This document shows, in pieces, positions 32,482-62,960 of a DNA stretch of 64,000 nt (its first letter is position 1; every line of letters begins with the position of its first letter). Location: positions 111,262 through 175,261 of the forward strand of contig OZ220743.1 of the NCBI GenBank assembly GCA_965116965.1, in the 5' to 3' direction. Under the pieces are notes generated by a model, which made no database searches, was not told where the DNA came from, and worked only from the letters and a program-made list of their open reading frames with translations. The position numbers and the translations under genes are program-made. The stretch is from Acidimicrobiales bacterium. GTDB lineage: Bacteria; Actinomycetota; Acidimicrobiia; Acidimicrobiales; Aldehydirespiratoraceae.

Positions 32482-32576
32482 AGGTCTGGCCGATCCCGGT
32501 GCCGCGCATCGTACCCCGGTCGAGAGTCGCAGACAGGACCGGCGAGCCCCCCAACCCGGAGGCCGAGCGGGCAGGC

Positions 32577-32815
32577 GCGCGAGTCGGGGCCCAAGCGGGC
32601 GAGGCCGTGGCCCGAGCAGCCCTCAGGTCGCGGGACGCGCGAGTCGGGGCCCAAGCGGGCGAGGCCGTACGGGCGAGCGGCCCTCAGGTCGCGGGACGCG
32701 CGAGTCGGGGCCCAAGCGGGCGAGGCCGTGGCCCGAGCAGCCCTCAGGTCGCGGGACGCGCGAGTCGGGGCCCAAGCGGGCGAGGCCGTACGGGCGAGCG
32801 GCCCTCAGGTCGCAG
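32577..32815 (+). repeat. tandem array, 4 units of 60/61 bp (two alternating variants), related to the dispersed intergenic element
   Basis: gcgcgagtcggggcccaagcgggcgaggccgtggcccgagcagccctcaggtcgcgggac alternates with a ...gtacgggcgagcggcc... variant. Unit starts are at 32577, 32637, 32698 and 32758. The last unit ends ...cgcagcgaacgagatcgggag, as in the single-copy elements. Confidence 0.9.
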
Positions 32816-33000
32816 CGAACGAGATCGGGAGACACTCCGCCGCACCGTGACTGGCTTCTGCGCGCCCGCGCGTGTTCTAGGGTGAAGACGATCCCGGAGC
32901 GGTTCTTCTTGGCGGCTTGCGCACGCCCGCGCGTGTTCTAGGGTCTTCGGCGGTGACTGACCAGCCAGAAGACCAGGCAGCCGGCCGCGCCGCACCGGCC

Positions 33001-34723: not shown

Positions 34724-34816
34724 ATGAGCAGCTTCGCGAGGCAGACAGCGAGGCCGTGGCCCGAGCGGCCCGCGAGCGCAGCGAACAAGAGCGGGAGTGA
34801 CGCCCCATGGACATGA
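34724..34816 (+). CDS. 30-codon intercistronic mini-ORF carried by the dispersed element
   Basis: Encodes MSSFARQTARPWPERPASAANKSGSDAPWT. Its TGA (34814-34816) overlaps the second ATG (34813) of the downstream amidohydrolase as ATGA. It is homologous to the mini-ORF at 48705-48797. Confidence 0.45.
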   Translation: MSSFARQTARPWPERPASAANKSGSDAPWT

Positions 34817-37389: not shown

Positions 37390-37481
37390 CCTGCCCAGCG
37401 AATCCCAGCATAACCAGCATTATCAGTTTTTTTTTGTGATTATTGTTATATTTCAATATGCACTCTGCTAACTTGCCTGTC

Positions 37482-37841
37482 ATGGACCCGGCGATAACCG
37501 CCACCGTCATCGGCGTGCTGCTAACCGTCGCCTTCGGCGCCTTCGCTACCGCGTTCGCCTGGTTCAGGTCCGACGTGATCGCTCGCTTGGACAAGATGGA
37601 TGAGAAGTCAGACAGCCGGTTCGAGAAGATCGACGGCAGGTTCGAGAAGATCGACGGCAGGTTCGAAGAGATCGACGGCAGGTTCGAAGAGATCGACGGC
37701 AGGTTCGAGAAGATCGACGCCCGGTTCGAGAAGATCGACGCCCGGTTCGACCGGCTGGAGACGACCGTTCAGACCCTGATTGTGACGCTCGCCCAGAGAG
37801 GGCATTTGACGGACCCAGACGACTCGGGGCCCGAAGACTGA
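37482..37841 (+). CDS. small membrane-anchored coiled-coil protein with six and a half 21-bp (heptad) repeats
   Basis: MDPAITATVIGVLLTVAFGAFATAFAWFRSDV (one TM helix), then RFEKIDG x2, RFEEIDG x2, RFEKIDA x2, RFDRLET, and a C-terminal LAQRGHLTDP. It lies behind a roughly 90-bp AT-rich tract. TAACTT sits 7 nt upstream of the ATG, and I saw no Shine-Dalgarno. Confidence 0.65.
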   Translation: MDPAITATVIGVLLTVAFGAFATAFAWFRSDVIARLDKMDEKSDSRFEKIDGRFEKIDGRFEEIDGRFEEIDGRFEKIDARFEKIDARFDRLETTVQTLIVTLAQRGHLTDPDDSGPED

Positions 37842-37848: not shown

Positions 37849-38025
37849 GTGATCCTTGCCGCCATCGTCATCGGCGGGCTGTACCCGGCCTCACTCGCTG
37901 CCTTCATCATTCAGTTCGTCCGGCTGCGGTCTGACATGCACGCGGGTTTCGACAGGCTCGAGACCCGCTTCGACGAACTGTTCGACCGGCTGGAGAGTCA
38001 GGTGCCGATGACTGACTCTCCGTAA
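37849..38025 (+). CDS. small membrane-anchored coiled-coil protein (58 aa, GTG start; below the ORF-track cutoff)
   Basis: My own translation: VILAAIVIGGLYPASLAAFIIQFVRLRSDMHAGFDRLETRFDELFDRLESQVPMTDSP. It has the same TM, LRSD and RLE layout as the neighbouring paralog. The 3' end overlaps the convergent LLM gene. Confidence 0.4.
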   Translation: MILAAIVIGGLYPASLAAFIIQFVRLRSDMHAGFDRLETRFDELFDRLESQVPMTDSP

Positions 38026-38909
38026 TGCTGGAGGGCCTCTAGGGAGCGGTTCAGGGAGTCGGCGGGGATGGGGGCCGCGCACCAGGTGACGCCTAGCTCG
38101 GCCAACTCCTGCAGGGCCTCCGAGTGGGCGTCGGGATTGAAGTCGTCGGCGACGGGGCTACCGCCGGCCAAGGTCATGAACGAGACGTCGATCTCTGCGG
38201 GGTCGCGACCGGCTGACTCGGCTTGACGCCATAGGTCGTCCAGCATCGCTCTCAAGTCGTCGAGTGTCTCCAGCGGGACCGTTCGGGCGGTGGTGGCCAG
38301 CCGTCGGGGGGCGGGGAACGGGACCCAACCGTCGGCGACGGTCGCGACACGCCGGCGGCTGAGGCGGCTGTTGCCTCCGATCCAGATCGGGATCGGCCGC
38401 TCCGGCTTGGGGTTGGCGGTCTGGCCCCGGGCCGTGAAGTTGCGGCCCTCGTAACTGAAGTCGTCGGTGGTCCACACGCCCCGCACGACCTCGATGGCCT
38501 CGTCGAACAGGTCGTTGCGCTCTTCGAAGTCCACTCCGAGGGCCCGGTACTCGCCCTTGAGGTAGCCGGTGCCCACGGCCAGCACGAACCGGCCGTCGGA
38601 CATAGCGTCGATGGTGGCCGCCGACTTAGCCACCAGGAACGGGTTGCGGTAGGGCAGCACCACCACGTTGGGGATCAACTGCACGCGCTCCGTGACCGCG
38701 GCCGTGAAGGCCAGCGCCGCGAAGGGATCGAGCGCGTCGTGGCCGCCGGCCGCCATCCAGCGGTGAGTCGGGGCGGGATGATCGGTGAAGCCAATCCCGT
38801 CGAAGCCGGCCTCCTCGGCCGCCCGGGCGAACTCCACGAGCCCTTGGCGCGTCGCGAACTCGGGGCTGCAGCGGCCCGCGGCCAGCGGGTACGTCACCGA
38901 GAACTTCAC
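37998..38909 (-). CDS. LLM-class F420-dependent oxidoreductase
   Basis: MKFSVTYPL..., FDGIGFTDHP, VVLPYRNPFLVAKSAATIDAMSDGRFVLAVGTGY and PIWIGGNS are luciferase-like monooxygenase family blocks. It uses a GTG start. Confidence 0.85.
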   Translation of the reverse strand: MKFSVTYPLAAGRCSPEFATRQGLVEFARAAEEAGFDGIGFTDHPAPTHRWMAAGGHDALDPFAALAFTAAVTERVQLIPNVVVLPYRNPFLVAKSAATIDAMSDGRFVLAVGTGYLKGEYRALGVDFEERNDLFDEAIEVVRGVWTTDDFSYEGRNFTARGQTANPKPERPIPIWIGGNSRLSRRRVATVADGWVPFPAPRRLATTARTVPLETLDDLRAMLDDLWRQAESAGRDPAEIDVSFMTLAGGSPVADDFNPDAHSEALQELAELGVTWCAAPIPADSLNRSLEALQHYGESVIGT

Positions 38910-39234
38910 GAACGAACCCTCCCGGCTGCCAACGCGAACCCGGCGATAGGCAAGAGCGCCACCGAGAACTTCACGAACGAACCCTCCCAGCTGCCAACGC
39001 GAACCCGGCGATAGGCAAGAGCGCCACCGAGAACTTCACGAACGAACCCTCCCAGCTGCCAACGCGAACCCGGCGATAGGCAAGAGCGCCACCGAGAACT
39101 TCACGAACGAACCCTCCCAGCTGCCAACGCGAACCCGGCGATAGGCAAGAGCGCCACCGAGAACGTCACGAACGAACTCTCCCAGCTCCCAGCTCGAACG
39201 CAACGGCAGGCACGAGCATCACCGAGAACTTCAC
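38906..39234 (-). repeat. tandem array of five 65-bp units, each a 22-codon mini-cistron (relay between the FGGY kinase stop and the LLM start)
   Basis: Unit starts (GTG) are at 39234, 39169, 39104, 39039 and 38974. Each reads GTG AAG/ACG TTC TCG GTG ... GGG AGG GTT CGT TCG TGA (MKFSVALLPIAGFALAAGRVRS). Each TGA overlaps the next GTG, and the final TGA overlaps the LLM GTG at 38909. Confidence 0.9.
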
Positions 39235-40559
39235 CGGTCGGCGCCCTCACGGAAGCGGCGGTAGCGCCCCTCGGCGCCGGCGGCGTGCCCGGCGCGGGGC
39301 TCCAACCGATGCGACACCCGGCCCCAGCGCCGGGCCTGCGACGTGTCGGCCTCCAGTCCGGCGGTGACCCGGCTGTGGTAGGCCGCACCGAGAGCGGCGC
39401 TATAGGGCTCGGCCGACACGTCCACGGCCAGGCCTGTCGTGTCGGCCAGCGCCTGCATCCAGGCCGGCGACTGGGTCCCGCCGCCGACGGCGACGATCCG
39501 CGAGGCGTCGAGACCGGAGAGCTCTACGTGGTGGCGCACCACGAAGCCGGCCGCCTCGTAGGCGGCCATCAGGACATGGGCCGATGTGTGGCCGACGTGA
39601 AGGTCGAGCAACTCGGCCCGGCGATCGGGATCGTGCAACGGGGTGCGCTCCCCTCTCGGATAGGGCAGCCACACGGGTAGGTCGTCACCGTCGAGCGCCA
39701 GCAGATCTCCAGAGTCCGGGTCGCCCACCAGAGCCCGGACCCGGTCGACGAACAGGCCGCCGGCGTTACTGGCCCCGCCCACGGCCATGATGCCGGCCCG
39801 GGCCGAGGGGAACGTCCACAACCCGTCGACCTCGACCCACTGATCGGTCATCACCCACGGCAGCAGCGTGGTTCCGCACATCACCAGCACGTCGCCGGCA
39901 TCGCCGCAGGGCGCGACGAGCTGCTCCCCCAGCACGTCGATGGTCCCGGCCGACACCAGGGCGCCGTCACGCTCGCCGATGGCGGCCGCCCCCGGGCTGA
40001 TGGCCGGGAGCTGCTCCGAGGTCATGCCGATCTCATCGAGCAACTCGGGCGCCCAGCCCTGCCCGTCGGACATCGGGGTCAGAGCCATGGCGGTGGAGGA
40101 GTCGAGGGCGGCCACGCCGCACAGGGCGCGGTTGGCCGCGGCCTGTGCCGGCCACAGAGCCTCCACCCCGTCACAGCCGGCCAACCAGCGAGCAAACCCG
40201 ACGGCCTCCCCGTCAGTGGCCTCAGTACCGGTTCCGACGCCTCGGCCGCGAGCGTCACCGTAGAGCAGACCAACGGTGACCGGCGTTCCGGCCGAGTCGA
40301 CTCCGCACATGGACGGCACCATGGCGGAGACGGTGACGGCGGCGATGGATCGATCGGCGGTGCCGGCCAGCATCTGGTCCCAGGCGCCGAGCACGCCGTC
40401 GATCCACGCGCCCTGAGGATCGTGCTCGAACTGGCCGGGATCGGTCGACACGACCCGGTGAGGGATCCGGGCCCGGGCCAGGACCGCACCGTCGCCGTCG
40501 GCGGCCACAGCCTTGACCGAGGTCGTCCCGATGTCGATCCCTACCGTCACCTCGTCCAT
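39231..40559 (-). CDS. FGGY-family carbohydrate kinase (xylulokinase-like)
   Basis: N-terminal VTVGIDIGTTSVKAVA, and C-terminal VAVGGGTQSPAWMQALADTTGLAV. Confidence 0.85.
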   Translation of the reverse strand: MDEVTVGIDIGTTSVKAVAADGDGAVLARARIPHRVVSTDPGQFEHDPQGAWIDGVLGAWDQMLAGTADRSIAAVTVSAMVPSMCGVDSAGTPVTVGLLYGDARGRGVGTGTEATDGEAVGFARWLAGCDGVEALWPAQAAANRALCGVAALDSSTAMALTPMSDGQGWAPELLDEIGMTSEQLPAISPGAAAIGERDGALVSAGTIDVLGEQLVAPCGDAGDVLVMCGTTLLPWVMTDQWVEVDGLWTFPSARAGIMAVGGASNAGGLFVDRVRALVGDPDSGDLLALDGDDLPVWLPYPRGERTPLHDPDRRAELLDLHVGHTSAHVLMAAYEAAGFVVRHHVELSGLDASRIVAVGGGTQSPAWMQALADTTGLAVDVSAEPYSAALGAAYHSRVTAGLEADTSQARRWGRVSHRLEPRAGHAAGAEGRYRRFREGADR

Positions 40560-40785
40560 ACGCCCTCCTCGCCACGGATGACTGCCACCCTTCGAACATC
40601 TCCGCGACAGTCATCTCCGCAACAGTCATCCCCGCTCCCTGACGCTACGCCACCGAAGCCACGCTTTGGTCCGATTCTTGCCGTGAAGCGGCCTCCTCAC
40701 CCCGAAGAGCCGCAAGACGGTCAACATCTCGGTCGAGTTGGCCGACAAGCCCCACGACGGGTAATGCGCTGGCTACGGTGGCGGT

Positions 40786-41691
40786 ATGAGTTCGCCGATT
40801 TGGGATCCGCACGGGCCAAGCCTCGTAGTGCTGAGGGACAATCTCCCCATACTCGCCGAACTCCCGGACGAGTCAATCACGTTGGTGTACATCGACCCTC
40901 CGTTCAACACCGGCCGTCGGCAGTCGAGGCAGACGCTGCGAACCACCAGAAGCGAGAAAGGCGATCGCGTCGGGTTCAAGGGTGCAACCTACAAGACAGT
41001 GAAGGGCTCGCTGTCGGCATATGACGACGCCTTCGGTGACTACTGGTCGTTCTTGGAGCCCAGGCTGGAGCAGGCATGGCGACTGCTGACAGACGATGGC
41101 ACGCTGTACCTGCACCTCGACTACCGCGAAGTCCACTACGCCAAGGTCGTGCTTGACTCACTGTTTGGCCGGGAGTGTTTCCTGAACGAGATTATTTGGG
41201 CCTACGACTACGGTGCTCGGGCGCGAAGCCGCTGGCCAGCCAAGCACGACAACATCCTCGTCTACGTGAAGAACCCCGACGCCTACCACTTCGACAACGC
41301 CACCGTCGACCGCGAGCCCTACATGGCTCCGGGCCTAGTAACACCCGAGAAGGCGGCCAAAGGCAAGTTGCCCACCGATGTCTGGTGGCACACCATCGTG
41401 TCGCCGACAGGCAAAGAGAAGACCGGCTATCCAACTCAGAAACCCGAGGGCATCCTCCGCCGTATCGTGCAAGCCAGCAGCCGACAGGGCGACTGGGTGC
41501 TCGACTTCTTCGCTGGCAGTGGCACGGCTGGTGCTGTCGCGGCTCAACTCGACCGTCGCTTCATAATGGTCGACAACAACCCAGAGGCCTACGAAGTGAT
41601 GCAAAGGCGCCTCGGGAACGGAGGGTTGCTAACATCGATCAAGTATCTGGACCTAAGCACCGACCAGCCCGCGGAGCAGACGGTTGCCTGA
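40786..41691 (+). CDS. type II DNA methyltransferase, beta-class amino-methyltransferase (N6-A or N4-C)
   Basis: Motif IV LVYIDPPFNTG near the N-terminus. TGYPTQKPEGILRRIV and AdoMet motif I VLDFFAGSGTAGAVA near the C-terminus. Confidence 0.85.
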   Translation: MSSPIWDPHGPSLVVLRDNLPILAELPDESITLVYIDPPFNTGRRQSRQTLRTTRSEKGDRVGFKGATYKTVKGSLSAYDDAFGDYWSFLEPRLEQAWRLLTDDGTLYLHLDYREVHYAKVVLDSLFGRECFLNEIIWAYDYGARARSRWPAKHDNILVYVKNPDAYHFDNATVDREPYMAPGLVTPEKAAKGKLPTDVWWHTIVSPTGKEKTGYPTQKPEGILRRIVQASSRQGDWVLDFFAGSGTAGAVAAQLDRRFIMVDNNPEAYEVMQRRLGNGGLLTSIKYLDLSTDQPAEQTVA

Positions 41692-42238
41692 CCACGAGAT
41701 TATAGATCCGGAGGTCACCCTCCTAGCGGAGATCGCGACGACACTCGAAGGTCAGTATTCAGACGACTTTTCGATGTGGGCGGGGAGTCCGTTCCGCTGG
41801 ATCAAGACCCGGCCATCAAGACACGTCGGTGCCATAGCCGAGAAGCTCGTGAGCCATTGGTGTGCCGCCAAGGATCTGAACGTGTCACGTTCCCCGGATA
41901 GCCAGGCCGACCTTGTGATCGACGGGGCGAGGGTAGAAGTGAAGTACTCCAGCCTCTGGACCGACAACGGCATCTACAAGTTCCAACAGATTCGAGACCA
42001 GAATTACGACTACTGCTTCTGTCTGGGCGTCTCGCCATTCGAAGCACACGCCTGGTTCATTCCAAAGCCGGTGTTGATGACAGACAAGCCGCCGTCTTTG
42101 GTGCCACAGCATGGCGGGCAAGCCGGTCGAGATACGAAGTGGCTGTCGTTTCCCGCCACCTCGCCCCCGGATTGGCTGGCCCCGTTCGGTGGCACGCTTT
42201 CGGAGGTTCAAGGGCTGATCTTGGAGGCCGTCCGCTAG
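41684..42238 (+). CDS. putative type II restriction endonuclease (PD-(D/E)XK-like)
   Basis: It overlaps the methyltransferase stop by 8 nt. The candidate catalytic core is PDSQADLVIDGARVEVKYSS (D...E-x-K). No other family similarity recognised. Confidence 0.5.
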   Translation: MPDHEIIDPEVTLLAEIATTLEGQYSDDFSMWAGSPFRWIKTRPSRHVGAIAEKLVSHWCAAKDLNVSRSPDSQADLVIDGARVEVKYSSLWTDNGIYKFQQIRDQNYDYCFCLGVSPFEAHAWFIPKPVLMTDKPPSLVPQHGGQAGRDTKWLSFPATSPPDWLAPFGGTLSEVQGLILEAVR

Positions 42239-42247
42239 TTTCGGCTC

Positions 42248-43219
42248 ATGAGTCGGCCTCGGGTGTTGGTTACCGCGCCCCTTCGGGGCCCTGCCCTCGA
42301 CGAGTTGCGCGACATCGCCGACGTGGTGTTCGAACCCTGGATCGAACACCAGCCGATCAAGCTCTACCGATCCCGAGACTTCGCGGCCAAGATCCGCCAC
42401 GAGGGAGCCGACATCGTCGTGTGCGAGGCCGACTCGTGCAAGGGTCCGGTGCTGGAGCTGCCGCTGACGGCCATCGCCTCCACCCGGGCCCGGCCCACCA
42501 ACGTCGATGTCGACGCGGCCACCGCGGCCGGCATTCCCGTGCTGCGCACACCTGGCCGCAACTCCGACGCCGTGGCCGAGATGACGGTGGCTCTGCTGAT
42601 GGCAGTGACCCGGTTCGTGGTCGCCGGCGACCGCGACGTGCGAGCGGGCACGATGTTCGGCGAGACCCTCCCCTACCAGCGCTACCGGGCCTGGCAGGTG
42701 GCGGGACGCACTGCCGGGCTGGTGGGACTGGGTGCCGTGGGTCGGGCCGCCAAGTGGCGCCTGGAGGGCCTGGGCATGACGATGATCGCCGCCGATCCCT
42801 ATGCCGCCGACGCCACCCACGGCCTCGACGACCTCCTGGCGACCGCTGACGTGGTGTCGATGCACGCCGCCGTAACGCCGGAGACGTCACAGATGATGGG
42901 CTCGGACCAGTTCGCGGCGATGAAGCCGGGGGCGATCTACCTCAACACGGCTCGGGCCGCACTGCACGACACCGACGCCCTGGTGGCCGCCCTGGAGTCG
43001 GGCCATCTGGCCGGCGCCGGCCTCGACCACTTCGAGGGCGAGATCCTGCCCACCGACCATCCCCTCACCGCCATGGACAACGTGGTGCTCACACCTCACA
43101 TCGGCGGGGCCACCTACGACGTGGAGAGCAAGCAGGCGGCCATCGTGGTGGCCGACATCAAGGCCATCCTGTCGGGCGGCAAGCCGCTCCACTGCGCCAA
43201 CCCGGAGGTCCTCGAGTGA
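42248..43219 (+). CDS. D-isomer-specific 2-hydroxyacid dehydrogenase (phosphoglycerate-dehydrogenase-like)
   Basis: NAD-binding GRTAGLVGLGAVGRAAKWRLEGLGM, catalytic region NTARAALHDTDALVAAL and TPHIGGAT. Confidence 0.85.
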   Translation: MSRPRVLVTAPLRGPALDELRDIADVVFEPWIEHQPIKLYRSRDFAAKIRHEGADIVVCEADSCKGPVLELPLTAIASTRARPTNVDVDAATAAGIPVLRTPGRNSDAVAEMTVALLMAVTRFVVAGDRDVRAGTMFGETLPYQRYRAWQVAGRTAGLVGLGAVGRAAKWRLEGLGMTMIAADPYAADATHGLDDLLATADVVSMHAAVTPETSQMMGSDQFAAMKPGAIYLNTARAALHDTDALVAALESGHLAGAGLDHFEGEILPTDHPLTAMDNVVLTPHIGGATYDVESKQAAIVVADIKAILSGGKPLHCANPEVLE

Positions 43220-43260
43220 GCATCGCTGCCAGCCATCCCAACCCGGAGGTCCTCGAGTGA
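43216..43260 (+). repeat. 41-bp duplicated gene junction forming one 14-codon relay mini-cistron
   Basis: caacccggaggtcctcgagtgagcatcg occurs at 43198 and again at 43239. GTG AGC ATC GCT GCC AGC CAT CCC AAC CCG GAG GTC CTC GAG TGA encodes MSIAASHPNPEVLE. Its GTG overlaps the dehydrogenase TGA, and its TGA overlaps the aldolase GTG at 43257. Confidence 0.85.
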
Positions 43261-43916
43261 GCATCGAAGGAGACCGTCAGGATCCTGTCCACCAGGAGGT
43301 AGCCGACGTCTCGCAGCAGATGGAGCGGGCCGGACTGGTGGTGGGCACGGCCGGCAACGTGTCGGGCCGCCGCAGCGACGGCTCGGTCTGCCTCACCCCG
43401 TCGTCCACCCCCTACCCCGACGTCACCGCCGGCAACCTCGCCGTCCTCAGCCTCGAGGGCGAGCACCTGGCCGGATCGGGCCAGCCGTCCACCGAGAAGG
43501 CCATGCACCTGGCCTGCTACAACGCCTTCGAAGAGGTCGGCGGCGTCGTCCACTGCCATCCGCCCCACGCCTCGATGTTCGCGGTGGCCCACCAGCCCAT
43601 CCCGGCCAGCATCGAGGAGGTGATCGTCTACGTGGGCGGCGACGTGCCGGTGGCCGACTACGCCACCACCGGCACCGACGAACTGGCCGCAGAGGTGGTG
43701 CGCCACCTGGCCGACCGGGGCGCGGTGCTGATGGCCAACCACGGCCTGCTGTGCGTGGGCAAGTCGCCGTCCGACGCGCTGCACACTGCCCTGGTGGTGG
43801 AGCACACCGCCAAGATCATGTTCGGGGCCCGCGTCCTGGGCGGCGTCGTATCCCTGCCCGAGAAGATCGCCAGGGACTTCGCCGGCATTTACGGCTACAT
43901 CCGCAGCACCTGGTGA
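43257..43916 (+). CDS. class II aldolase/adducin-family protein
   Basis: GTAGNVSGRR..., EKAMHLACY and HCHPPHASMFA are motifs of L-fuculose-phosphate-aldolase-like proteins. Confidence 0.85.
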   Translation: MSIEGDRQDPVHQEVADVSQQMERAGLVVGTAGNVSGRRSDGSVCLTPSSTPYPDVTAGNLAVLSLEGEHLAGSGQPSTEKAMHLACYNAFEEVGGVVHCHPPHASMFAVAHQPIPASIEEVIVYVGGDVPVADYATTGTDELAAEVVRHLADRGAVLMANHGLLCVGKSPSDALHTALVVEHTAKIMFGARVLGGVVSLPEKIARDFAGIYGYIRSTW

Positions 43917-43930
43917 CCGAAGGAGGACAC

Positions 43931-44770
43931 ATGCAGCACATGCTCTACGAGACCGACGGGCGGGTGGCGGTGATCACCCTTAACCGTCCCGAGAAAGCCA
44001 ACGCGGTCAGCGGCCTGACGCTCAACGAGATGGACGAGTGCTTCACCCGAGCCGCCGACGACGCCGACGTGAGGGTGATCGTGCTGCGGTCGGTCGGCAA
44101 GCACTTCTGCGCCGGTCACGACCTCTCCGGCAGCGACGAGGCCCTGGAGAAGGCCGCGGCAGGCGAGGGCAGCCCGGCCAAGGGCAGCTTCGTGGACTGG
44201 AAGGAGCGGGGCCTCGAAGCCATCTACGAATGGGAGACGATCCACTACCTCGGCTACAGCCGGCGCTGGCGCGACATCCCCAAGCCCACCATCGCGGCGG
44301 TGCAGGGCCAGTGCATCGCCGGGGGACTGATGCTGTGCTGGCCCTGCGATCTGATCATCGCCGCCGACAACGCCATGTTCTCCGATCCGGTGGCCCGCAT
44401 GGGCATCGGCGGGGTGGAGTACCACGGCCACACCTGGGAGCTCGGCCCCCGCAAGGCCAAGGAGATGCTGTTCACCGCTCGCCGGATCGGCGCGGCGGAG
44501 GCCGAGGCGGCCGGCATGGTCAACAGGGTCGTTCCCCTCGACGACCTCCACACCGAGACCATGGCGCTGGCCCATGAGATCGCCCAGATGCACCCCTTCG
44601 CTCTGGCCCAGTCCAAGCGGGCCGTCAACCGCACCATGGACATCCAGGGCTTCTACTCGGCGCTCCAGGCCGTGTTCGACATCCACCAGACGGGCCACGG
44701 CAACGCCCTGTCGGTGGGCGGATACCCGATCCTCACCGGCCTGACCGACATGAAGAAGTCCCAGTCCTGA
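43931..44770 (+). CDS. enoyl-CoA hydratase/isomerase (crotonase) family protein
   Basis: AGGAGGA lies upstream of ATG 43931. VAVITLNRPEKANAV, FCAGHDL and AAVQGQCIAGGLML are crotonase blocks. Confidence 0.85.
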   Translation: MQHMLYETDGRVAVITLNRPEKANAVSGLTLNEMDECFTRAADDADVRVIVLRSVGKHFCAGHDLSGSDEALEKAAAGEGSPAKGSFVDWKERGLEAIYEWETIHYLGYSRRWRDIPKPTIAAVQGQCIAGGLMLCWPCDLIIAADNAMFSDPVARMGIGGVEYHGHTWELGPRKAKEMLFTARRIGAAEAEAAGMVNRVVPLDDLHTETMALAHEIAQMHPFALAQSKRAVNRTMDIQGFYSALQAVFDIHQTGHGNALSVGGYPILTGLTDMKKSQS

Positions 44771-44810
44771 GAACCGTCAGCTAGGGGAGCCCCCCACCGG
44801 CTGACCTAGC

Positions 44811-46394
44811 GTGAGCCGTGTGAGTCTCTGGGAGCGGCCGGACGTTCACGCCCGGCGCTGGTTCCTGCTCGGCGTGCTGAGCCTGACCCTGGTGCTGGTG
44901 GTCATGTCGGTCTCGGGCCTGAACGTGGCCCTGGCCACCTTGCAGCGGGATGTGGGTGTCACCGGGCCGCAGCTGCAGTGGATCGTCAACACCTACGCGC
45001 TCGCCTTCGGCGGGCTGCTGATGACCGGCGGAGCCATCGGCGACCGCTACGGCCGCAAGGGCGCCCTGCTCGGAGGCCTGCTCGTGTTCGGGCTCGGCGC
45101 GCTCCTCGGAGGCTTGGCCGACTCGGCCGAGGTCATCCTGGTCGCCCGGGGAGCCATGGGGGTGGCGGCCGCCTTCGTCATGCCGGCCACGCTGTCGCTG
45201 CTGATCGAGATCTTCCCGCCGCCGGAGAGGCCGACCGCCATCGCGGTGTGGTCGGGCTTCGCCGGGGGCGGCGCCGCCATCGGGCCCGCGCTGACCGGCC
45301 TGTTCGTGACCGGATGGTGGTTCGTGCCGTCGTGGGGCTGGGAGGCCGGCTTCCTCTACAACGTCCCGGTGGTGGCGGTGGTGATGGTCGCGGTGGTGCT
45401 GTGGCTGCCCCGATCCCGGGACGAGCACCCCCGGCATCTCGACCCTGCCGGAGCGGCGCTGTCCATCGTGGCCATGACCGCCCTCATCTACGGCATCATC
45501 GAGGGACCCGAGCAGGGCTGGACATCGGCACCGGTGCTCTCGGCCTTCGCGGTGGCGGTCGTCTTCGGTGCGGTCCTGCTGGGGTGGCAGCAGCGAGCCC
45601 GCCATCCGATGCTGCCGCTGGAACTGTTCGGCGACCGGCGCTTCAGCATCGGCTCGGCCGTGGTCACCATGACGTTCGTCGTGATGATCGGGTTCTGGTT
45701 CCTGTTCGCGCTCTACGTGCAGTTCGTCCTGGGATACTCCGCCCTGGAGGCGGGGCTGGCGACCATGCCGGAGGCGCTGGCGTCGATGGTTGTGGCCCCG
45801 TTCACCGCCCCGCTCGCCGCCAGGTACGGATCGCGCCGGATCATGGCGGTCGGCTTCGCGGTGTTGGCGCTCACATTCCTGCCGCTGGCGATGGTCGACA
45901 CCGATACCAGCTATTGGTTCCTTCTGGGACCGCTGGTGCTGGCCGGGGCGGGTCTCAGCCTGGCCATGACCCCGGCCACCAACGACATCATGGTCGCCAC
46001 TCCCTACGACAAGGCCGGCATCGGCTCGGCCGTCAACGACACCGCCCGCGAGCTGGGGGCGGCGCTGGGCATCGCCACGCTGGGCGCCCTGTCCACCTCG
46101 ATCTACCGCAGCACGGTGGACGTGGCCCAGCTACCGCCCGAGGTGGCCTCCCCGGCGGCCGAGTCGATGGGTGCGGCCATCGAGGCCGCCTACCAGCTGT
46201 CCCGATCGGGCACGCTGGGCGAGGCCGCGGCTCAGGCGACGATCACCGAGACGGGGCAGGCCTTCACCACTGCCTTCGCCCAGACGATGGCGATATCGGG
46301 CGTAGTGTCGGCCCTGGCCGCGGTCGCGCTGCTAGTCGGCCACCTCGCCGAGGCCCGCGCCCGCCCCAGAGGCCGACTGGTAGGCGGCGGATGA
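44811..46394 (+). CDS. MFS transporter, DHA2 (EmrB/QacA, 14-TM) type
   Basis: 527 aa with about 14 hydrophobic segments. Motif GAIGDRYGRKGALLGGL (the MFS motif A-like G-x-x-x-D-R-x-G-R-K). Confidence 0.85.
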   Translation: MSRVSLWERPDVHARRWFLLGVLSLTLVLVVMSVSGLNVALATLQRDVGVTGPQLQWIVNTYALAFGGLLMTGGAIGDRYGRKGALLGGLLVFGLGALLGGLADSAEVILVARGAMGVAAAFVMPATLSLLIEIFPPPERPTAIAVWSGFAGGGAAIGPALTGLFVTGWWFVPSWGWEAGFLYNVPVVAVVMVAVVLWLPRSRDEHPRHLDPAGAALSIVAMTALIYGIIEGPEQGWTSAPVLSAFAVAVVFGAVLLGWQQRARHPMLPLELFGDRRFSIGSAVVTMTFVVMIGFWFLFALYVQFVLGYSALEAGLATMPEALASMVVAPFTAPLAARYGSRRIMAVGFAVLALTFLPLAMVDTDTSYWFLLGPLVLAGAGLSLAMTPATNDIMVATPYDKAGIGSAVNDTARELGAALGIATLGALSTSIYRSTVDVAQLPPEVASPAAESMGAAIEAAYQLSRSGTLGEAAAQATITETGQAFTTAFAQTMAISGVVSALAAVALLVGHLAEARARPRGRLVGGG

Positions 46395-46556
46395 GCGGCG
46401 CCTCTCACCCACCCAGCGAGGCCGTGGCCCGAGCGGCCCGTGAGCGAAGCGAACAACAGCGGGAAGCAACATGCTTCATCGCGACGTCGTTCGATTCATT
46501 TGCACGGACCGGATAACCGTCGAACAACAGCGGGAAGCAACACGCCTCATCGCGAC
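46395..46556 (+). repeat. copy of the dispersed intergenic element plus an internal 36-nt direct duplication
   Basis: agcgaggccgtggcccgagcggcccgtgagcgaagcgaacaacagcggga, then cgaacaacagcgggaagcaaca(t/c)gc(t/c)tcatcgcgac at 46450 and 46521. Confidence 0.8.
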
Positions 46557-46564
46557 TCCGTCAT

Positions 46565-46580
46565 GGCCCAATGATGGGCC
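46565..46580. terminator. short perfect hairpin between convergent MFS genes (possible bidirectional terminator)
   Basis: ggccca-atga-tgggcc. No U-tract follows, so a terminator function is only a guess. Confidence 0.25.
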
Positions 46581-46608
46581 ACGGGCCAGTGCGATGGGGT
46601 CAGCGGAG

Positions 46609-47754
46609 TCAGAAGCGGTCGGCTACACAGATCGACACGGCTGCGCCGGCCACCGACGAGGCAGCCACGGCCAGCCACATCGCCGGGTAGCCGGAGTGCT
46701 CGATCAGCCATCCCGTGACCAGAGGCCCGATGAATACCCCTACGTAGACGCCCATCTGCGTGATCCCGGTGGCGCTGCCGGCAGCCCGGGGGTTGGCCCG
46801 CACGATCCCGTAGTTGGTGAACACCGGCCAGATCCAGCCGCATCCGAACGACAGCAGCATGGCGGCCACATGGGTGGCCGGCGAGCGCAGCGCCAGCCCG
46901 GCCATGCCTATCGAGCCGAACAGGGCGGTGATGCCCCCCACCCGGAACGGCTTGACCCTCATCGTGTCCGACAGCCGGCCGCTCGCCACTCTCATCGCGA
47001 TGCCGGTGGCCGCCCCGACACTAAGGAACAGTCCGGCGGTGCCGGGTCCCAGCCCGGCGTCGACGCCGGAGCCGACCCCCCACGCGACGAGCGATCCAGC
47101 ACTGAAGGCCAGGAACGCACCCACCGCGGCGCCCAGGAAGAGGTCCCGGGACGACGACTCCGGCTCGGCTGCGCGGGCCGGAGTCCGGAACACCGACGAC
47201 CCGACGGCCGCCCTGACCAGCACCAGCGACATCAGCGCGAACACCGCGCCGGCCACATAGGCCCAGCGCCAGCCCACACCGACGGCCAGCGAGGGCACTG
47301 CGAAGCCCGCCAGCAGGGTGGCCGTGGGCAGGCCCGACTGCTTGATCGACACGGCCAGACCCAGCCGAGGCAGTTGAGCCTGGGCCAGGGCCAGGTTGAC
47401 CGACGTCTGGTTGGCGGCGTTGGCCAGCCCGGCCAGCACCAGGAAGCCGATCACCGCCAGGAACGAGCGGGCGCTGGCGGCCAGAGCCAGCTGCACCGCT
47501 ATGGACACTGAGAGCGCGAGGGTCATCTGGTTGAGCGGCCCGATCCGCTGGGCCAGCCGGCCCAGCATGACCGACCCGACCATGGCGGCCCCGAAGAACG
47601 ATCCGAGACCCCATCCGTACACCCCCTCGGAGACGCCCATCTCCGCACTCACCTGCACCGACATGGCGCCGATGAGGAACCCGGGCAGCACGGTGGACAC
47701 GGTGGCCATCACCGCGGCACCGATCACCAGGGACGGACGCGCTTCAGCAGACAC
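46609..47754 (-). CDS. MFS transporter (12-TM type)
   Basis: The start is set at GTG 47754, with GAGAGGGAAG upstream. The longer ORF to 47859 would read through the MITE-like repeat. Multiple TM segments are present throughout. Confidence 0.75.
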   Translation of the reverse strand: MSAEARPSLVIGAAVMATVSTVLPGFLIGAMSVQVSAEMGVSEGVYGWGLGSFFGAAMVGSVMLGRLAQRIGPLNQMTLALSVSIAVQLALAASARSFLAVIGFLVLAGLANAANQTSVNLALAQAQLPRLGLAVSIKQSGLPTATLLAGFAVPSLAVGVGWRWAYVAGAVFALMSLVLVRAAVGSSVFRTPARAAEPESSSRDLFLGAAVGAFLAFSAGSLVAWGVGSGVDAGLGPGTAGLFLSVGAATGIAMRVASGRLSDTMRVKPFRVGGITALFGSIGMAGLALRSPATHVAAMLLSFGCGWIWPVFTNYGIVRANPRAAGSATGITQMGVYVGVFIGPLVTGWLIEHSGYPAMWLAVAASSVAGAAVSICVADRF

Positions 47755-47777
47755 GGCGCGAACTCTTCCCTCTCGCT

Positions 47778-47878
47778 CTAGTGGTCCGTCGCTGAAATGA
47801 TCGGGGTGTCCGGAGCGCTCCCAAGCAGGGTCTCGGTCCTGCTGCGCTGCCCTAGCCATTTCGACGACACAGCTCTAG
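47778..47878 (+). mobile_element. 93-bp MITE-like element flanked by CTAG duplications (copy 2)
   Basis: See 13445-13545. It occupies almost the whole spacer between the thioesterase stop (the right-hand CTAG contains that stop codon) and the MFS start. Confidence 0.6.
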
Positions 47879-48705
47879 CCCAGGTCGATGGGACGGATCA
47901 TGCACTCCTGGGCGAAGGAGGCGAGCAGCGCACCGCCGGCGTCGAAGGCGTGGCCCTGGCCGAAGCCCCGGGCCCGGGCCAGCGTGGGCGAGTGCTGCGT
48001 GATCAGGCACCACTGGTCGAGGCGGAACGGGCGGTGGAACCAGACGGTGTGGCTGGTCACTGCGGTGTGGAGGGTGCGGTAGGAGTCGGCCTGGCTCACG
48101 CCCTCGACCGGGAGCAGCACGGTCCCGACGATGGTGAGGTCGGTGGCGTGGGCCAGCAGCGCCTGGTGAACGGCCGGGTCGTCGCCCAACCTCCGGTCCT
48201 CGACGCGGGTCCAGAAGGCGTAGCGGGGAGGAGCCGGTGCGGGGTCCCGCAGGTCTGCGCCGCCCGTCACCCTGGTCGTCCAGGGGATCATGGACATCTC
48301 CGTCGCGGCGGCCTCGTCGGGGTGGCCCGCCTCGGGGGCGGGCTTCTGATGCTCGAAGGCCGACGCGGGCTCCAGCGCGTGCATCGAGAGCAGGGCGGCG
48401 AAGATGGTCCTGCCATGCTGGCCGGCCCGGACCCGGCGCAGCGCGAAGGTCCGTCCGGTCTGGGTCTCCTCCACCTCGAACTCGATTGGATCGGTGGTCG
48501 AACCCTCCCGCGGGAACAGGCAGCTCAACGACTTGACAACCTTGCCCTCGGTGGTGGCCGCCCCCAGCGCGACCGCTTGGGCCAGTAGCTGGCCGCCGAA
48601 GATCCGGGGATAGTCCATCTCGATGTTGGGCGCGGTCCACACGCCCGGCCGCACCGGCTCCACTTCCAGGCAGCCGAGCAGGTCGTCGATGGTGATGACC
48701 GCCAT
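47875..48705 (-). CDS. acyl-CoA thioesterase II (TesB-like, double hot-dog)
   Basis: IFGGQLLAQAV..., SLSCLFPREG... and HTVWFHRPFRLDQW are characteristic of TesB-type thioesterases. Confidence 0.85.
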   Translation of the reverse strand: MAVITIDDLLGCLEVEPVRPGVWTAPNIEMDYPRIFGGQLLAQAVALGAATTEGKVVKSLSCLFPREGSTTDPIEFEVEETQTGRTFALRRVRAGQHGRTIFAALLSMHALEPASAFEHQKPAPEAGHPDEAAATEMSMIPWTTRVTGGADLRDPAPAPPRYAFWTRVEDRRLGDDPAVHQALLAHATDLTIVGTVLLPVEGVSQADSYRTLHTAVTSHTVWFHRPFRLDQWCLITQHSPTLARARGFGQGHAFDAGGALLASFAQECMIRPIDLG

Positions 48706-48797
48706 CAGGACGTCTCGGCGGTTTCATGCCCGCTCTTGTTCGCTGCGCTCACGGGCCGCTCGGGCCACGGCCTCGCTGAGCGTCTCGCCGGGATCAC
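48705..48797 (-). CDS. 30-codon intercistronic mini-ORF carried by the dispersed element
   Basis: Its GTG (48797-48795) overlaps the DUF35 stop (GTGA). It encodes VIPARRSARPWPERPVSAANKSGHETAETS. Its TGA (48707-48705) overlaps the thioesterase ATG at 48705 (TGATG). Confidence 0.5.
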   Translation of the reverse strand: MIPARRSARPWPERPVSAANKSGHETAETS

Positions 48798-49231
48798 CGG
48801 GCGTCACCGCCCAACCGCTCGGCCTCTGCAGGACGGAACAGCGGAACGTGCCACTCGCCGCTCTCCTCGAACAGCACCTCGACCCGCATCCCGATCTCGA
48901 CCTCGTCGATGTCGCAGTCCACGATGTTGGTGCCGATCCGCACCGTCGGATCCTCGTCGAGTTCGACGAGCGCGAAGACATAGGGCGGCGTGAACCCCGG
49001 GATCCACTCCTTGCGATTGATCGTGTACGTGGCCACGGTGCCGGTTCCGGCCACCGGCTCGGGGCCGACCCGGCGCGAGTGGCAGAAGGGGCAGGCCGGG
49101 CCGGGCGGGTGGACCCAGCGGGAGCATTCGCCGCAACGCTGGATCCTGAGCCGGCCGTCGGCCCCGGAACGCCAGTAGAACTCGCTCTCGGGCGAGGCCA
49201 GCACGAACCGGGGCGGGTTGTCCGCGCTCAT
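48794..49231 (-). CDS. Zn-ribbon/OB-fold protein (DUF35), thiolase partner
   Basis: Rubredoxin-like CGECSRWVHPPGPACPFC followed by an OB-fold region. It lies immediately downstream of an SCP-x-type thiolase. Confidence 0.85.
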   Translation of the reverse strand: MSADNPPRFVLASPESEFYWRSGADGRLRIQRCGECSRWVHPPGPACPFCHSRRVGPEPVAGTGTVATYTINRKEWIPGFTPPYVFALVELDEDPTVRIGTNIVDCDIDEVEIGMRVEVLFEESGEWHVPLFRPAEAERLGGDAR

Positions 49232-49511
49232 GACGGTCCCCTGGTCAGCCGGTTGTCCGCGCTCACGACAGGCACCGAGTCAGCCGGTTGTCCGCGCTCA
49301 TGACGGTCCCCTGGTCAGCCGGTTGTCGGCGCTCACGACAGGCACCGAGTCAGCCGGTTGTCCGCGCTCATGACGGTCCCCTGGTCAGCCGGTTGTCGGC
49401 GCTCACGACAGGCACCGAGTCAGCCGGTTGTCCGCGCTCATGACGGTCCCCTGGTCAGCCGGTTGTCGGCGCTCACGACAGGCACCGAGTCAGCCGGTTG
49501 TCGGCGCTCAT
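49228..49511 (-). repeat. tandem array of eight 35-bp units (four 70-bp double units), each a 12-codon mini-cistron (relay between the thiolase stop and the DUF35 start)
   Basis: Starts at 49511, 49476, 49441, 49406, 49371, 49336, 49301 and 49266 alternate ATG and GTG. ATG AGC GCS GAC AAC CGG CTG ACT CGG TGC CTG TCG TGA encodes MSADNRLTRCLS, and GTG AGC GCC GAC AAC CGG CTG ACC AGG GGA CCG TCA TGA encodes SADNRLTRGPS. Every stop overlaps the next start, and the last overlaps the DUF35 ATG at 49231. Confidence 0.9.
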
Positions 49512-50686
49512 GACGGTCCCCTGGTCAGCAGCAGGCATCCGGTCTCGGGGCCGCCGCCGGCTCCGACCGCGACCACCTCGCAGCCGGGGACCTGGACGTT
49601 GGCTGTGCCCCGCAACTGCATCACTGCCTCGTGAAGGTGGCCGAAGCCGTGCAGCCGGCCCGCGGAGAGCTGGCCGCCGGACGTGTTGAGCGGCGCCGGG
49701 CCGTCGGGGCCGATGTTGGCGCCGCCCTCCACGAAGGCCCCGCTCTCCCCCTTGCCGCAGAAGCCCATGGCCTCGATCCAGGCCAGGGTCAACCAGCTGA
49801 AGCCGTCGTACAGCTGAGCGGTGTCCACGTCGTCGACCGTCAGCTCGGTGCGCTCCCACATCGAGGCGGCGGTGTGGCGCATCATCATCGACGTCAGGTC
49901 GTCGAACTGGTCCCAGGAGGGCCGGCCCCGGATGGCGGTCCCCATGGCGTTGACGCCGACCGCGCCCGCCGGGGCGTCGGGTGAGTGGTCGCGGTGCGAG
50001 ACCACCACCGCGGTGGACCCGTCGCAGGGAACATCACAGTCGTAGAGGCACAGCGGGTCGCTGATCATCCGCACGGCCAGGTAGTCGTCGATGGTCATGG
50101 GATCGGTGTAGACGGCCTGGGGGTTGGCCGCCGCGTTGGCCCGCCCGTTGATCGCAATGGCGCCGAGCTGCGTGCGGGTGGTGCCGTAGTCGTGCATGTG
50201 GCGGCGGGCGTAGCAGGCGACCCAGCAGGCGGCCGACGCCGCTCCGTAGGGGATCATGAACTGGAACGGACCGGCCGAGCCGGCCATCGGGCCGCCCCCA
50301 CCGCCGCCGCCGGGGCGCAACGGCCCTCCGCTGCCCTCCACCACGGTGCGGAACACCAGCACGTGGCGAGCCAGGCCGGTCGCCACCGCCAGGATGGCGT
50401 TGTGGACCGCGCCCAGCGGGCCGGCAGTCTCCACGCCCGAGCTGCGCCAGTTGAGCGCCAACCGCAGCGCCTCGTGCAGTTCAGCCCCCATGGCCCCTCC
50501 GAAGGAGCCGCCGAAGCCCGGATAGGTGGACACCCCGTCGATGTCGGCCGTCGTCAGCCCGGCGTCGGCGACCGCCCGGAGTGCGGCCTCGACGGTGAGG
50601 TCGATGCCGGTGCGGTACAGCCGGCGGCCGATCTCAGACTGGGCCGCGCCGCTGATAACGGCCCGCCGCTCCCGAGGCTCACCCAT
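49508..50686 (-). CDS. thiolase-like lipid-transfer (SCP-x-type) protein
   Basis: 392 aa with a thiolase-superfamily fold pattern (VISGAAQSEIGR..., GVSTYPG..., CDVPCDGSTAVVV, GGQLSAGRLHGFGHLHEAVMQLRG). It is paired with a DUF35 gene. Confidence 0.8.
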   Translation of the reverse strand: MGEPRERRAVISGAAQSEIGRRLYRTGIDLTVEAALRAVADAGLTTADIDGVSTYPGFGGSFGGAMGAELHEALRLALNWRSSGVETAGPLGAVHNAILAVATGLARHVLVFRTVVEGSGGPLRPGGGGGGGPMAGSAGPFQFMIPYGAASAACWVACYARRHMHDYGTTRTQLGAIAINGRANAAANPQAVYTDPMTIDDYLAVRMISDPLCLYDCDVPCDGSTAVVVSHRDHSPDAPAGAVGVNAMGTAIRGRPSWDQFDDLTSMMMRHTAASMWERTELTVDDVDTAQLYDGFSWLTLAWIEAMGFCGKGESGAFVEGGANIGPDGPAPLNTSGGQLSAGRLHGFGHLHEAVMQLRGTANVQVPGCEVVAVGAGGGPETGCLLLTRGPS

Positions 50687-50783
50687 CAGCCTCGCCTCCG
50701 GCGACCGATCGAACTCCTGTCAAGAATCCACCTCTCAGGTGGGAGACCCGCGGGTAGTTCGGCCCGAGGCTCCGCAACCATCA

Positions 50784-51512
50784 TCAACGGGCTGCTCCCG
50801 ACTCGAACAGGCGGGATTCCAGGAGGGCTCCTGCCTCGGCCGTCGGGCCCTGCCAGGTGATCAGCCCGTGCTCCAGGACTGCAGCCCGGTCGCACAGTTC
50901 CAGCGCGTGGCCGACCTGCTGCTCCACGATCAGCAAAGCTGTCCCCGCCCCCCGGATCTGCGAGAGCGTCCCGAACACCTGGTCCACAACCATCGGAGCG
51001 AGACCGAGGGAGAGTTCGTCGGCGATCAGCAGCCGGGGCGACTCCACCAGCACCCGGGCCAGCGAGAGCATCCTCTGCTCGCCGCCCGACATCGTGCCGG
51101 CCATCTGGCCGCGGCGCTCGCCCAGCCGGGGGAACAGCTCGTAGGCCCGGTCCAGCCCGCCGGCCAGCCCGGCTCGGCCGAAGGCCCTTTGGAACGACAG
51201 CGCCAGATTCTCCTGCACGGTCAGCGAAGCGAACACCGAGCGACCCTCGGGCGCATGGGCCACCCCTCGGCGCACGAAGTACCAGGCCGACGAGCGGCCG
51301 TCCGAGACCGGCTCGCCGTCCACCAGCACCCGCCCCGCCGTCGGCGTTACCAGCCCGCTGGCTACCCGGGCCAGAGTGGTCTTGCCCGCGCCGTTGGCAC
51401 CGACCAAGGCCACCGCCTCTCCCAGGCCGACCGACAGGGACACGCCGAACAGCGCCCGGAACGGGCCATAGCCGGCCTCCACGTCGCGCAACTCAAGGAT
51501 CGGCGCGCTCAC
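50784..51512 (-). CDS. ABC transporter ATP-binding protein, LivF-like
   Basis: Walker A GANGAGKTT, signature SGGEQRML and Walker B LLIADE. GTG 51512 (GGAGA upstream) is preferred over ATG 51566, which would add an atypical N-terminal extension. Confidence 0.8.
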   Translation of the reverse strand: MSAPILELRDVEAGYGPFRALFGVSLSVGLGEAVALVGANGAGKTTLARVASGLVTPTAGRVLVDGEPVSDGRSSAWYFVRRGVAHAPEGRSVFASLTVQENLALSFQRAFGRAGLAGGLDRAYELFPRLGERRGQMAGTMSGGEQRMLSLARVLVESPRLLIADELSLGLAPMVVDQVFGTLSQIRGAGTALLIVEQQVGHALELCDRAAVLEHGLITWQGPTAEAGALLESRLFESGAAR

Positions 51513-51614
51513 GACACGATCTCCCCAGGCCTGGGTCAGCGCAAGAAGGCGCGCGTGCCGCCGCATTCCGCACAGAGAACCTCACAACGCGCCGAAACGG
51601 GCCTTCGCACCTGC

Positions 51615-62954: not shown

Positions 62955-62960
62955 GACGCT

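Follow-up and report, generated by a model that had tools for sequence, protein, structure and literature searches.

We analysed a 64,000-nucleotide (nt) stretch of contig OZ220743.1 (hereafter the window) from an Acidimicrobiales bacterium, in which three arrays of very short open reading frames (ORFs) lie at junctions between co-directional genes. Each array unit is a mini-ORF that begins at one overlapping stop/start motif, RTGA (R being A or G), and ends in the next, so that the units form an uninterrupted relay that leaves the upstream gene at its stop codon and reaches the downstream gene at its start codon. All unit lengths are of the form 3n − 1. The arrays probably arose by slippage that duplicates overlapping junctions, with selection keeping those copies that preserve the coupling of translation termination and reinitiation.

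Anatomy of the three arrays

Array 1 (38906..39234, minus strand) lies between the gene of an FGGY-family carbohydrate kinase (39231..40559, minus strand; ORF list, Pfam FGGY_N/FGGY_C) and that of a luciferase-like monooxygenase (37998..38909, minus strand; Pfam), whose start codon is the GTG at 38909. An RTGA...RTGA frame scan resolved it into five 65-nt relay mini-ORFs of 22 codons each, on the minus strand at 39166-39234, 39101-39169, 39036-39104, 38971-39039 and 38906-38974; Tandem Repeats Finder reported 5.2 copies of 65 nt at 38895-39234. All six boundaries read GTGA. The TGA of the kinase gene (39233-39231) sits within the first of them, and the GTG of the sixth is the monooxygenase start. 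GGAGG is found 8 nt ahead of each GTG, and every unit opens with a repeat of the first five codons of the monooxygenase gene (VKFSV). Units two to five are near-identical, and the first one is diverged.

Array 2 (43216..43260, plus strand) consists of a single 41-nt relay mini-ORF (VSIAASHPNPEVLE) with GTGA at both ends, between the genes of a D-2-hydroxyacid dehydrogenase (42248..43219) and a class II aldolase (43257..43916), both on the plus strand and identified from the ORF list and Pfam. It originated in a 41-nt duplication of the junction, of which two copies are present (43200-43226 is identical to 43241-43267); this duplication scores under the Tandem Repeats Finder threshold. The tail of the dehydrogenase gene (...NPEVLE*) encodes a GGAGGT motif and recurs as the tail of the unit, which places GGAGGT 6 nt upstream of the start. 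The head of the unit (VSI) corresponds to the first codons of the aldolase gene.

Array 3 (49228..49511, minus strand) separates the gene of a thiolase-like protein (49508..50686, minus strand; ORF list, Pfam), which ends in ATGA, from that of a DUF35/ChsH2 protein with a zinc ribbon and an OB-fold (48794..49231, minus strand; Pfam), which starts with the ATG at 49231 (MSADNPP...). It comprises eight 35-nt relay mini-ORFs of 12 codons each, with ATGA and GTGA in turn. Two unit types alternate, MSADNRLTRCLS (ATG start, GTGA end) and VSADNRLTRGPS (GTG start, ATGA end); they differ at seven positions, so that the array is better described as a 70-nt super-unit present four times with 99% identity. 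Tandem Repeats Finder likewise reported 9 copies of 35 nt or 4.5 copies of 70 nt at 49216-49529. The initial annotation of this DNA, made from the sequence alone, had described eight copies of a 35-bp unit; the eight frames are indeed there, and the description is amended to alternating variants. The thiolase tail (...LLTRGPS*) recurs in every second unit, and the head of the units (M/VSADN) matches the first codons of the DUF35 gene. A Shine–Dalgarno (SD)-like run had also been claimed for every unit of the three arrays. It is clear in arrays 1 and 2, and in array 3 it is weak in the ATG units (AGGGGA) and absent from the GTG half.

A mechanical scan of the RTGA...RTGA frames found no internal stop within the units of arrays 1 to 3. 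Traced from the upstream stop, the chain led, in all three arrays, exactly to the start and into the frame of the downstream gene, in line with the initial description of arrays that begin at a 4-nt stop/start overlap, keep every unit open and end in register. Local alignments of the three units with one another and with a dispersed element of the window (see below) gave scores within the range of shuffled controls, which bears out the earlier statement that the arrays are unrelated in sequence. Each unit consists of the tail of its upstream gene, with the SD-like purines, followed by RTGA and the head of its downstream gene, all taken from its own junction. We therefore regard the arrays, as judged from this composition, as duplications of their own junctions and not as insertions of a foreign element.

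We also considered the arrays as structural RNAs or attenuators, and dropped this reading because their predicted folding is no better than that of shuffled sequences and if anything less stable (z +0.5 to +1.7). An Rfam scan of the whole window returned no match, so that neither the arrays nor the dispersed element correspond to a known RNA family. A scan of the 38-51 kb region for sigma-70-type promoters and intrinsic terminators gave no match in the arrays, a result that carries limited weight in an actinobacterium of high G+C content.

Repeat lengths in related genomes

Relatives were gathered by a scan with the aldolase protein, keeping one genome per species, which yielded 76 loci. The best aldolase matches (92-95% identity) come from Acidimicrobiia metagenome-assembled genomes named Candidatus Aldehydirespirator, Acidimicrobiaceae or Acidimicrobiales, several of them from sponge metagenomes. 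The source of the window is a relative of Candidatus Aldehydirespirator (Acidimicrobiia), whose family is treated as sponge-associated (PMC11706023). An exact-protein look-up of the DUF35 protein of the array 3 operon found no record. Gene order is kept within ±10 kb of the locus across relatives, and therefore the same junctions can be compared between genomes. The comparison spans about 25 related genomes, whose loci are numbered L001, L002 and so on. It covers the three array sites and a fourth junction, between the DUF35 gene and an acyl-CoA thioesterase gene.

Outgroups and many close relatives have a single overlapping junction at each of the four sites: GTGA or ATGA at kinase/monooxygenase, dehydrogenase/aldolase and thiolase/DUF35, and TGATG at DUF35/thioesterase. 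We take this single junction as the probable ancestral state. Other relatives carry inserts. At kinase/monooxygenase, there is one 65-nt unit in L003, L005, L007, L008 and L020, one 62-nt unit in L017 and three in L012, a 50-nt unit plus a 62-nt one in L016, and single units of 50 nt (L009), 44 nt (L013) and 179 nt (L014). At dehydrogenase/aldolase, the 41-nt mini-ORF of the window is shared with its two closest relatives, L001 and L002, and also occurs in L016; the other inserts are 80 nt plus seven units of 59 nt (L012), five to eight units of 47 nt (L014), 83 nt plus three units of 47 nt (L015), 68 plus 47 nt (L017) and 86 nt (L023). At thiolase/DUF35, where the window has its eight 35-nt units, a 47-nt mini-ORF is present in L003, L004, L006, L010, L012, L015, L017 and the metagenome contig L077, and L014 has two 44-nt units, L025 20 nt and L023 5 nt. 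The DUF35/thioesterase junction holds seven 47-nt units with TGATG boundaries in L012, 53 nt in L015, and 92, 101 or 176 nt at insertions of the dispersed element. All the mini-ORF lengths tabulated at the four junctions are of the form 3n − 1, and nearly all chains are complete. L001 and L002 have neither array 1 nor array 3; both arrays therefore expanded recently in the lineage of the window, from no unit or one.

The significance of these lengths follows from arithmetic. For a 4-nt (RTGA) or a 1-nt (TGATG) overlap, the distance between successive starts must equal 2 modulo 3. A duplication of length L across an overlapping junction leaves both genes intact for any L, and only with L = 3n − 1 does the ORF that begins in copy one terminate precisely at copy two. 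If L = 3n, the gene is read in frame from the first start and gains an N-terminal extension; if L = 3n + 1, the ORF traverses the following start in another frame. Since both genes stay intact for any L, the phase is no by-product of the duplication, and each independent event has a 1/3 chance of hitting it. The initial annotation had noted RTGA overlaps throughout. This is correct for the three arrays of the window and too narrow as a wider rule, since 1-nt TGATG overlaps obey it too.

Within a junction, the lengths of the unit variants lie a multiple of three apart: 65, 62, 50 and 44 nt at kinase/monooxygenase, 47 and 35 nt at thiolase/DUF35. The 179-nt mini-ORF of L014 itself holds four copies of an internal 39-nt repeat, in frame, i.e. 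a 3n array within a 3n − 1 frame. The thiolase/DUF35 mini-ORF measures exactly 47 nt in eight lineages, in which the flanking proteins are 85-100% identical. Its interior has a mean nucleotide identity of about 46%, and the encoded peptides are unrelated. In this mini-ORF the length is constrained and the sequence free.

We weighed whether the common phase might be due to chance, or the arrays to an assembly artefact. The window alone gives a probability of 1/27 (0.037) for units of 65, 41 and 35 nt all being 2 modulo 3, as had been calculated initially, and RTGA at a TGA stop is common at 70% G+C. Indeed, the base ahead of a TGA stop is A or G in roughly half of the cases. RTGA is cheap, and therefore the argument draws its weight from period and insert length modulo 3, from the conservation of length and from the contrast between contexts, and not from chain completion. 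The comparative data take the probability from 1/27 to about 1e-4 to 1e-6. Among the arrays detected by Tandem Repeats Finder, the period is 2 modulo 3 in 9 out of 9 that span overlapping junctions versus 3 out of 16 non-coding arrays in other contexts (Fisher p = 1e-4). This carries out part of the census of repeat length by context that the initial annotation had proposed, and it agrees with it. In addition, 19 distinct insert lengths at the four orthologous junctions form relays and 4 do not (binomial p about 2e-6). These p values are approximate, given that the genomes are related, yet distinct lengths imply distinct events. They exclude a tally of relays at all junctions, which was noisy because our home-made gene caller misses genes: real genes turned up in it as long mini-ORFs, and some chains counted as broken where the following gene had been missed. 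An artefact is contradicted by independent chromosome-level (long-read) assemblies that show the same junctions expanded with other 3n − 1 lengths, and by the presence of diverged units, unlike collapsed or mis-joined repeats. Chance or artefact is thus barely credible as an explanation. The initial annotation had proposed either a mechanism that duplicates junctions or selection for phase-preserving duplications. Both parts gain support: the former from units made of tail plus head and from array-less relatives with a single RTGA junction, the latter from the excess of relay-forming lengths and the 47-nt length kept despite drift, which argue strongly for selection on phase.

The arrays in other contexts include one between divergent genes of the window (32576-32813), with two copies of 121 nt (or 3.9 copies of 60 nt), a period of 1 modulo 3 and no relay chain. 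The genes around it are at 31219-32622 (minus strand) and 32881-34686 (plus strand), and its units hold a variant of the core of the dispersed element (in the ARPWPEQPSGRG frame). Also between divergent genes is an array of 6.7 copies of 73 nt in L015. Arrays in spacers with an independent SD motif have 1.9 copies of 73 nt (L016), 6.5 copies of 36 nt (L014) and 2.6 copies of 35 nt (L017), and one between convergent genes has 3.6 copies of 41 nt (L014).

In L107 (19684-19810), a 37-nt duplication of the 5' end of recN is present in 3.4 copies; its period is 3n + 1 and it does not involve an overlapping junction. Each unit has a 9-codon ORF whose TGA lies 7 nt before the next GTG, making a relay with a gap and not an overlap. 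A common rule may be that an ORF opened in one copy must not run across the next start. Long arrays are very abundant in the related genome of L111 (contig of 3,324,494 nt; 2659-3202, 4029-4505 and 5794-6401), where 7.5 copies of a 73-nt repeat seem to interrupt a MatE transporter gene; others are 2.1 copies of 223 nt, and 12.7 copies of 48 nt within a DUF222/HNH gene.

Dispersed element, further relays and mechanism

The dispersed element, called ARPWPERP, has the core AGCGAGGCCGTGGCCCGAGCGGCCCGTGAGCGCAGCGAACAAGAGCGGG, and its full copies are about 130-150 nt long. Three copies were located in the window, at 34737-34800 (plus strand), 46404-46466 (plus strand) and 48724-48787 (minus strand), and others in relatives, e.g. 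L006 (15208-15271), L012 (16831-16893) and L019 (10690-10746). Altogether nhmmer gave 29 matches at non-orthologous intergenic sites in the related loci. Copies are mostly oriented as the flanking genes, and L017, L014 and L027 have tandem arrays of it with units of 41, 44 and 45 nt. Alignment shows that the ends are inverted repeats, 5' AGAGGCCGAGCGGATAGGCG... and 3' ...CTCGCCTAT...GC being reverse complements. ARPWPERP resembles the miniature inverted-repeat transposable elements: it is short and non-coding, has terminal inverted repeats and occupies non-orthologous sites. Overlapping a copy on the opposite strand, between two convergent MFS transporter genes, we observed two diverged 71-nt direct repeats (46405-46564, minus strand; MRRVASRCCS... 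and MKHVASRCCS... frames) with ATGA boundaries.

In the operon of array 3, insertion of this element (core 48724-48787) formed a fourth relay, a 92-nt mini-ORF (VIPARRSARPWPERPVSAANKSGHETAETS; 48705..48797, minus strand) running from a GTGA in the DUF35 stop to the TGATG at the start of the thioesterase gene (47875..48705, minus strand; ORF list, Pfam). At this junction, in the window, L006 and L014, the element is inserted in the last DUF35 codons and supplies a new GTGA stop/start, from which the mini-ORF runs to the original TGATG. This raises the question of whether the arrays, too, derive from a mobile element of the type of mycobacterial interspersed repetitive units (MIRUs), inserted at start codons with duplication of the RTGA target site and bringing its own coupled ORF. 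The literature sees MIRUs in this way (PMC12548453, PMC3184786), and ARPWPERP does make complete relays in three genomes. We nonetheless consider it highly unlikely for the arrays, which share no sequence with one another or with the dispersed element and whose every unit is built from the tail and head of its own flanking genes; the 44-nt units of L014 at thiolase/DUF35, for instance, reproduce the local junction exactly.

A fifth relay, a 101-nt mini-ORF of 33 codons with a TTGA start and a TGATG end (50686..50787, minus strand), lies between the gene of an ABC ATPase (50784-51566) and that of the thiolase-like protein, both of which it overlaps. Unlike the array units, it encodes a peptide (..AELPAG.PP.RWI.DRSSI.RRRR.) that is conserved in five genomes, including L009, L011, L012 and L015, and it could represent either a genuine small protein or a coupling ORF that has been conserved. 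The mini-ORFs of the arrays might similarly encode micropeptides needed in their own right, since those orthologous to array 1 give hydrophobic peptides with a ...GRVR(S/G/R) end in 7 of the 9 lineages. However, the peptides found at orthologous positions in different species show no relationship, with length fixed, the ends that are conserved fall on the copied head of the gene and on the SD and RTGA nucleotides, and the closest relatives do without arrays 1 and 3. A micropeptide function of the arrays is hence hard to credit.

The preferred reading, duplication of junctions with selection on coupling, would operate as follows. Replication slippage or unequal recombination would copy a short segment across an RTGA junction, each copy carrying the upstream gene's final codons with their ribosome-binding purines, RTGA and the downstream gene's opening codons. 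With a copy of length 3n − 1, the ribosome would stop at the upstream TGA, restart at the overlapping RTG, read the unit and stop in the next RTGA, repeating this unit by unit until it reaches the real downstream gene, so that coupling would be preserved. Copies of other lengths, which cause the true start to be crossed in the wrong frame or the N-terminus to be extended, would be purged by selection. A tolerated array could then grow and shrink as a minisatellite, its interior drifting while its length class is held.

Alternatively, copy number itself might be selected, the arrays acting as an adaptive translational rheostat in which each relay step would hand on a mere fraction of the ribosomes, so that the number of units sets the ratio of downstream to upstream protein; through slippage this ratio would be heritable yet reversible. 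Copy number differs sharply among close relatives (0, 1, 3 or 5 units at the FGGY junction; 0, 1, 2 or 8 at the thiolase junction), the recent expansions are near-identical, as between the 70-nt super-units, and the same junctions have expanded repeatedly. The same pattern is nevertheless predicted by neutral minisatellite dynamics with a phase filter, and the SD motif kept in most units could make copy number irrelevant through de novo initiation. A metagenome scan with the DUF35 protein recovered only four close contigs, all of them from other species, and no within-species copy-number alleles; the variation from 0 to 8 units is one between related species-level genomes. An adaptive rheostat is therefore rather unlikely. 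It is equally doubtful that the junctions of this clade are evolvable rheostats that set, for example, the thiolase:DUF35 stoichiometry, every mini-cistron gained or lost by slippage letting a fixed fraction of ribosomes through, with MIRU-like architecture in general reached by self-duplication and not by transposition.

Several observations weigh against junction duplication with selection on coupling. We infer from sequence the passage of ribosomes through the units, as well as the slippage and the coupling as the selected property. Eight serial reinitiations should strongly attenuate DUF35 synthesis unless units are initiated de novo, and half of array 3 is without an SD motif. Either this organism reinitiates efficiently at RTGA, or a lower DUF35 output is tolerated or useful. 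The metagenome scan just mentioned provided no within-species alleles. Some chains are broken, as at the FGGY junction of L015, where a 610-nt insert has its own gene, and at a rearranged site in L006, or imperfect, as in the overshoot at the thioesterase junction of L023 and the last link of a 74-nt array in L012. The genomes are akin, so that events are not fully independent, and all the overlapping junctions compared come from one 20-kb neighbourhood. We examined a second, independent neighbourhood, the region of the indolepyruvate oxidoreductase gene in seven related genomes, and found no array at an overlapping junction; the arrays there have periods of 46, 37, 45, 72, 73 and 223 nt and are located at 3' ends, at 5' ends, in spacers and in a disrupted gene. 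Lastly, the gap lengths at FGGY/monooxygenase, thiolase/DUF35 and DUF35/thioesterase (dehydrogenase/aldolase was not tabulated) revealed no 3n duplication beyond small in-frame indels, and such duplications are harder to see, as they read as N-terminal extensions. The idea in the initial annotation that the genome uses intercistronic mini-ORFs systematically stands as a pattern and not as a function, and any function of the arrays beyond tolerated coupling is hypothetical.

The 610-nt insert of L015 belongs to a set of small ORFs with a hydrophobic N-terminus and in-frame tandem repeats, found in the window at 37443-37841 and 62913-63458 (both plus strand) and in L015 at about 6100-6540 (minus strand). 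Their repeats are 21 nt in seven copies ('EKIDGRF') or 33 nt in 4.6 copies ('IAEARDEFRTG'), and the 62913-63458 ORF has a C-terminal motif, ...RLARIEG.., in common with the L015 insert. The set has the look of a paralogous coiled-coil family of variable repeat number, with weak Pfam coiled-coil matches. Elsewhere in the window, three overlapping short ORFs (98, 23 and 134 nt, with ATGA or GTGA; 19140-19400, minus strand) lead into an indolepyruvate ferredoxin oxidoreductase gene (15721-19296). A tRNA scan of the window found none. The G+C content of the window is about 69%; in positions 1-2000 it falls to 0.556, compared with about 0.69 in the rest, and neither a tRNA nor an Rfam match lies there.

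Comparison with known systems

The closest known architecture is that of the MIRUs, reportedly described by Supply et al. in 1997 (Mol Microbiol 26:991), a parallel that the initial annotation had not drawn. Like them, the arrays are made of tandem units between co-directional genes, here confirmed by Pfam, with the 35-nt unit slightly under the usual size; each unit has an ORF in the direction of the operon, whose ends overlap the stop or start of its neighbours, and unit length is 3n − 1. MIRUs are 40-100-bp tandem units between operon genes, whose small ORFs overlap the genes next to them (PMC3184786), with coupling at a −4 spacing (PMC12548453). The units of the senX3-regX3 locus are 77 and 53 bp long (PMC4213456), both of which, by our own arithmetic, are 3n − 1. 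MIRU copy number varies between strains, with e.g. two or three copies in strains of bacillus Calmette–Guérin (PMC9392950). In contrast, MIRUs form one dispersed family, viewed as mobile, at about 40 loci and in several Mycobacterium species (PMC3184786). Here no consensus is shared, as each array was copied from its own junction, the host belongs to the Acidimicrobiia and not to Mycobacterium, and the same junctions have expanded repeatedly with differing unit lengths. Given this local derivation, homology of the units to the mycobacterial MIRU consensus is very unlikely. The arrays have the architecture of MIRUs without the family relationship, and on these sequence grounds they are not MIRUs; the dispersed ARPWPERP element of the window is a closer analogue than the arrays.

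Pairs of overlapping genes (ATGA/GTGA, TGATG) are coupled by termination-reinitiation, according to the work of Huber et al. (2019, 2023) as cited in a review (PMC12548453). Every array boundary is of one of these classic types, GTGA or ATGA in the arrays of the window and TGATG where the thioesterase and thiolase genes start and within the 47-nt array of L012, and the ancestral junctions are ordinary overlapping pairs. The known cases differ in being single junctions of two real genes, whereas here the junction is repeated up to eightfold with non-conserved mini-cistrons. Short upstream ORFs that hand ribosomes to a downstream gene, as well as synthetic bicistronic designs (PMC12548453), similarly involve a short ORF that perhaps serves only for ribosome hand-over. 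These, however, are single and at the 5' end of the message, and the present ones are tandem chains made by duplication inside an operon.

The arrays also resemble minisatellites, or variable-number tandem repeats (VNTRs), in their head-to-tail copies, the high identity of recent copies and a copy number that shifts between relatives. Coding VNTRs have periods of 3n, and intergenic ones have no phase rule. The intergenic VNTRs of this clade (121, 73, 46 and 37 nt) follow no such rule either, whereas the junction arrays are only 3n − 1. They also differ from a coding tandem repeat, with periods of 65, 41 and 35 nt and an in-frame TGA closing each unit.

In practical terms, annotation will mistake such arrays for intergenic repeats or spurious small genes, and short-read assemblies will break at them; they could serve as strain markers of these symbionts. 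For measurements of reinitiation efficiency they offer natural constructs in which the number of relay steps ranges from 0 to 8 and an SD motif is present or absent. A conserved length combined with a drifting sequence, and the absence of the rule away from overlapping junctions, make for unusually clean evolutionary evidence of selection on ribosome hand-over. The novelty is limited in that the grammar is known from MIRUs; what differs is that the units are locus-specific and self-derived, in another class. With the arrays, the MIRU grammar is seen not to be confined to a single family of mycobacterial repeats: it recurs in a distant lineage of uncultivated actinobacteria, where the junctions themselves repeatedly give rise to it.

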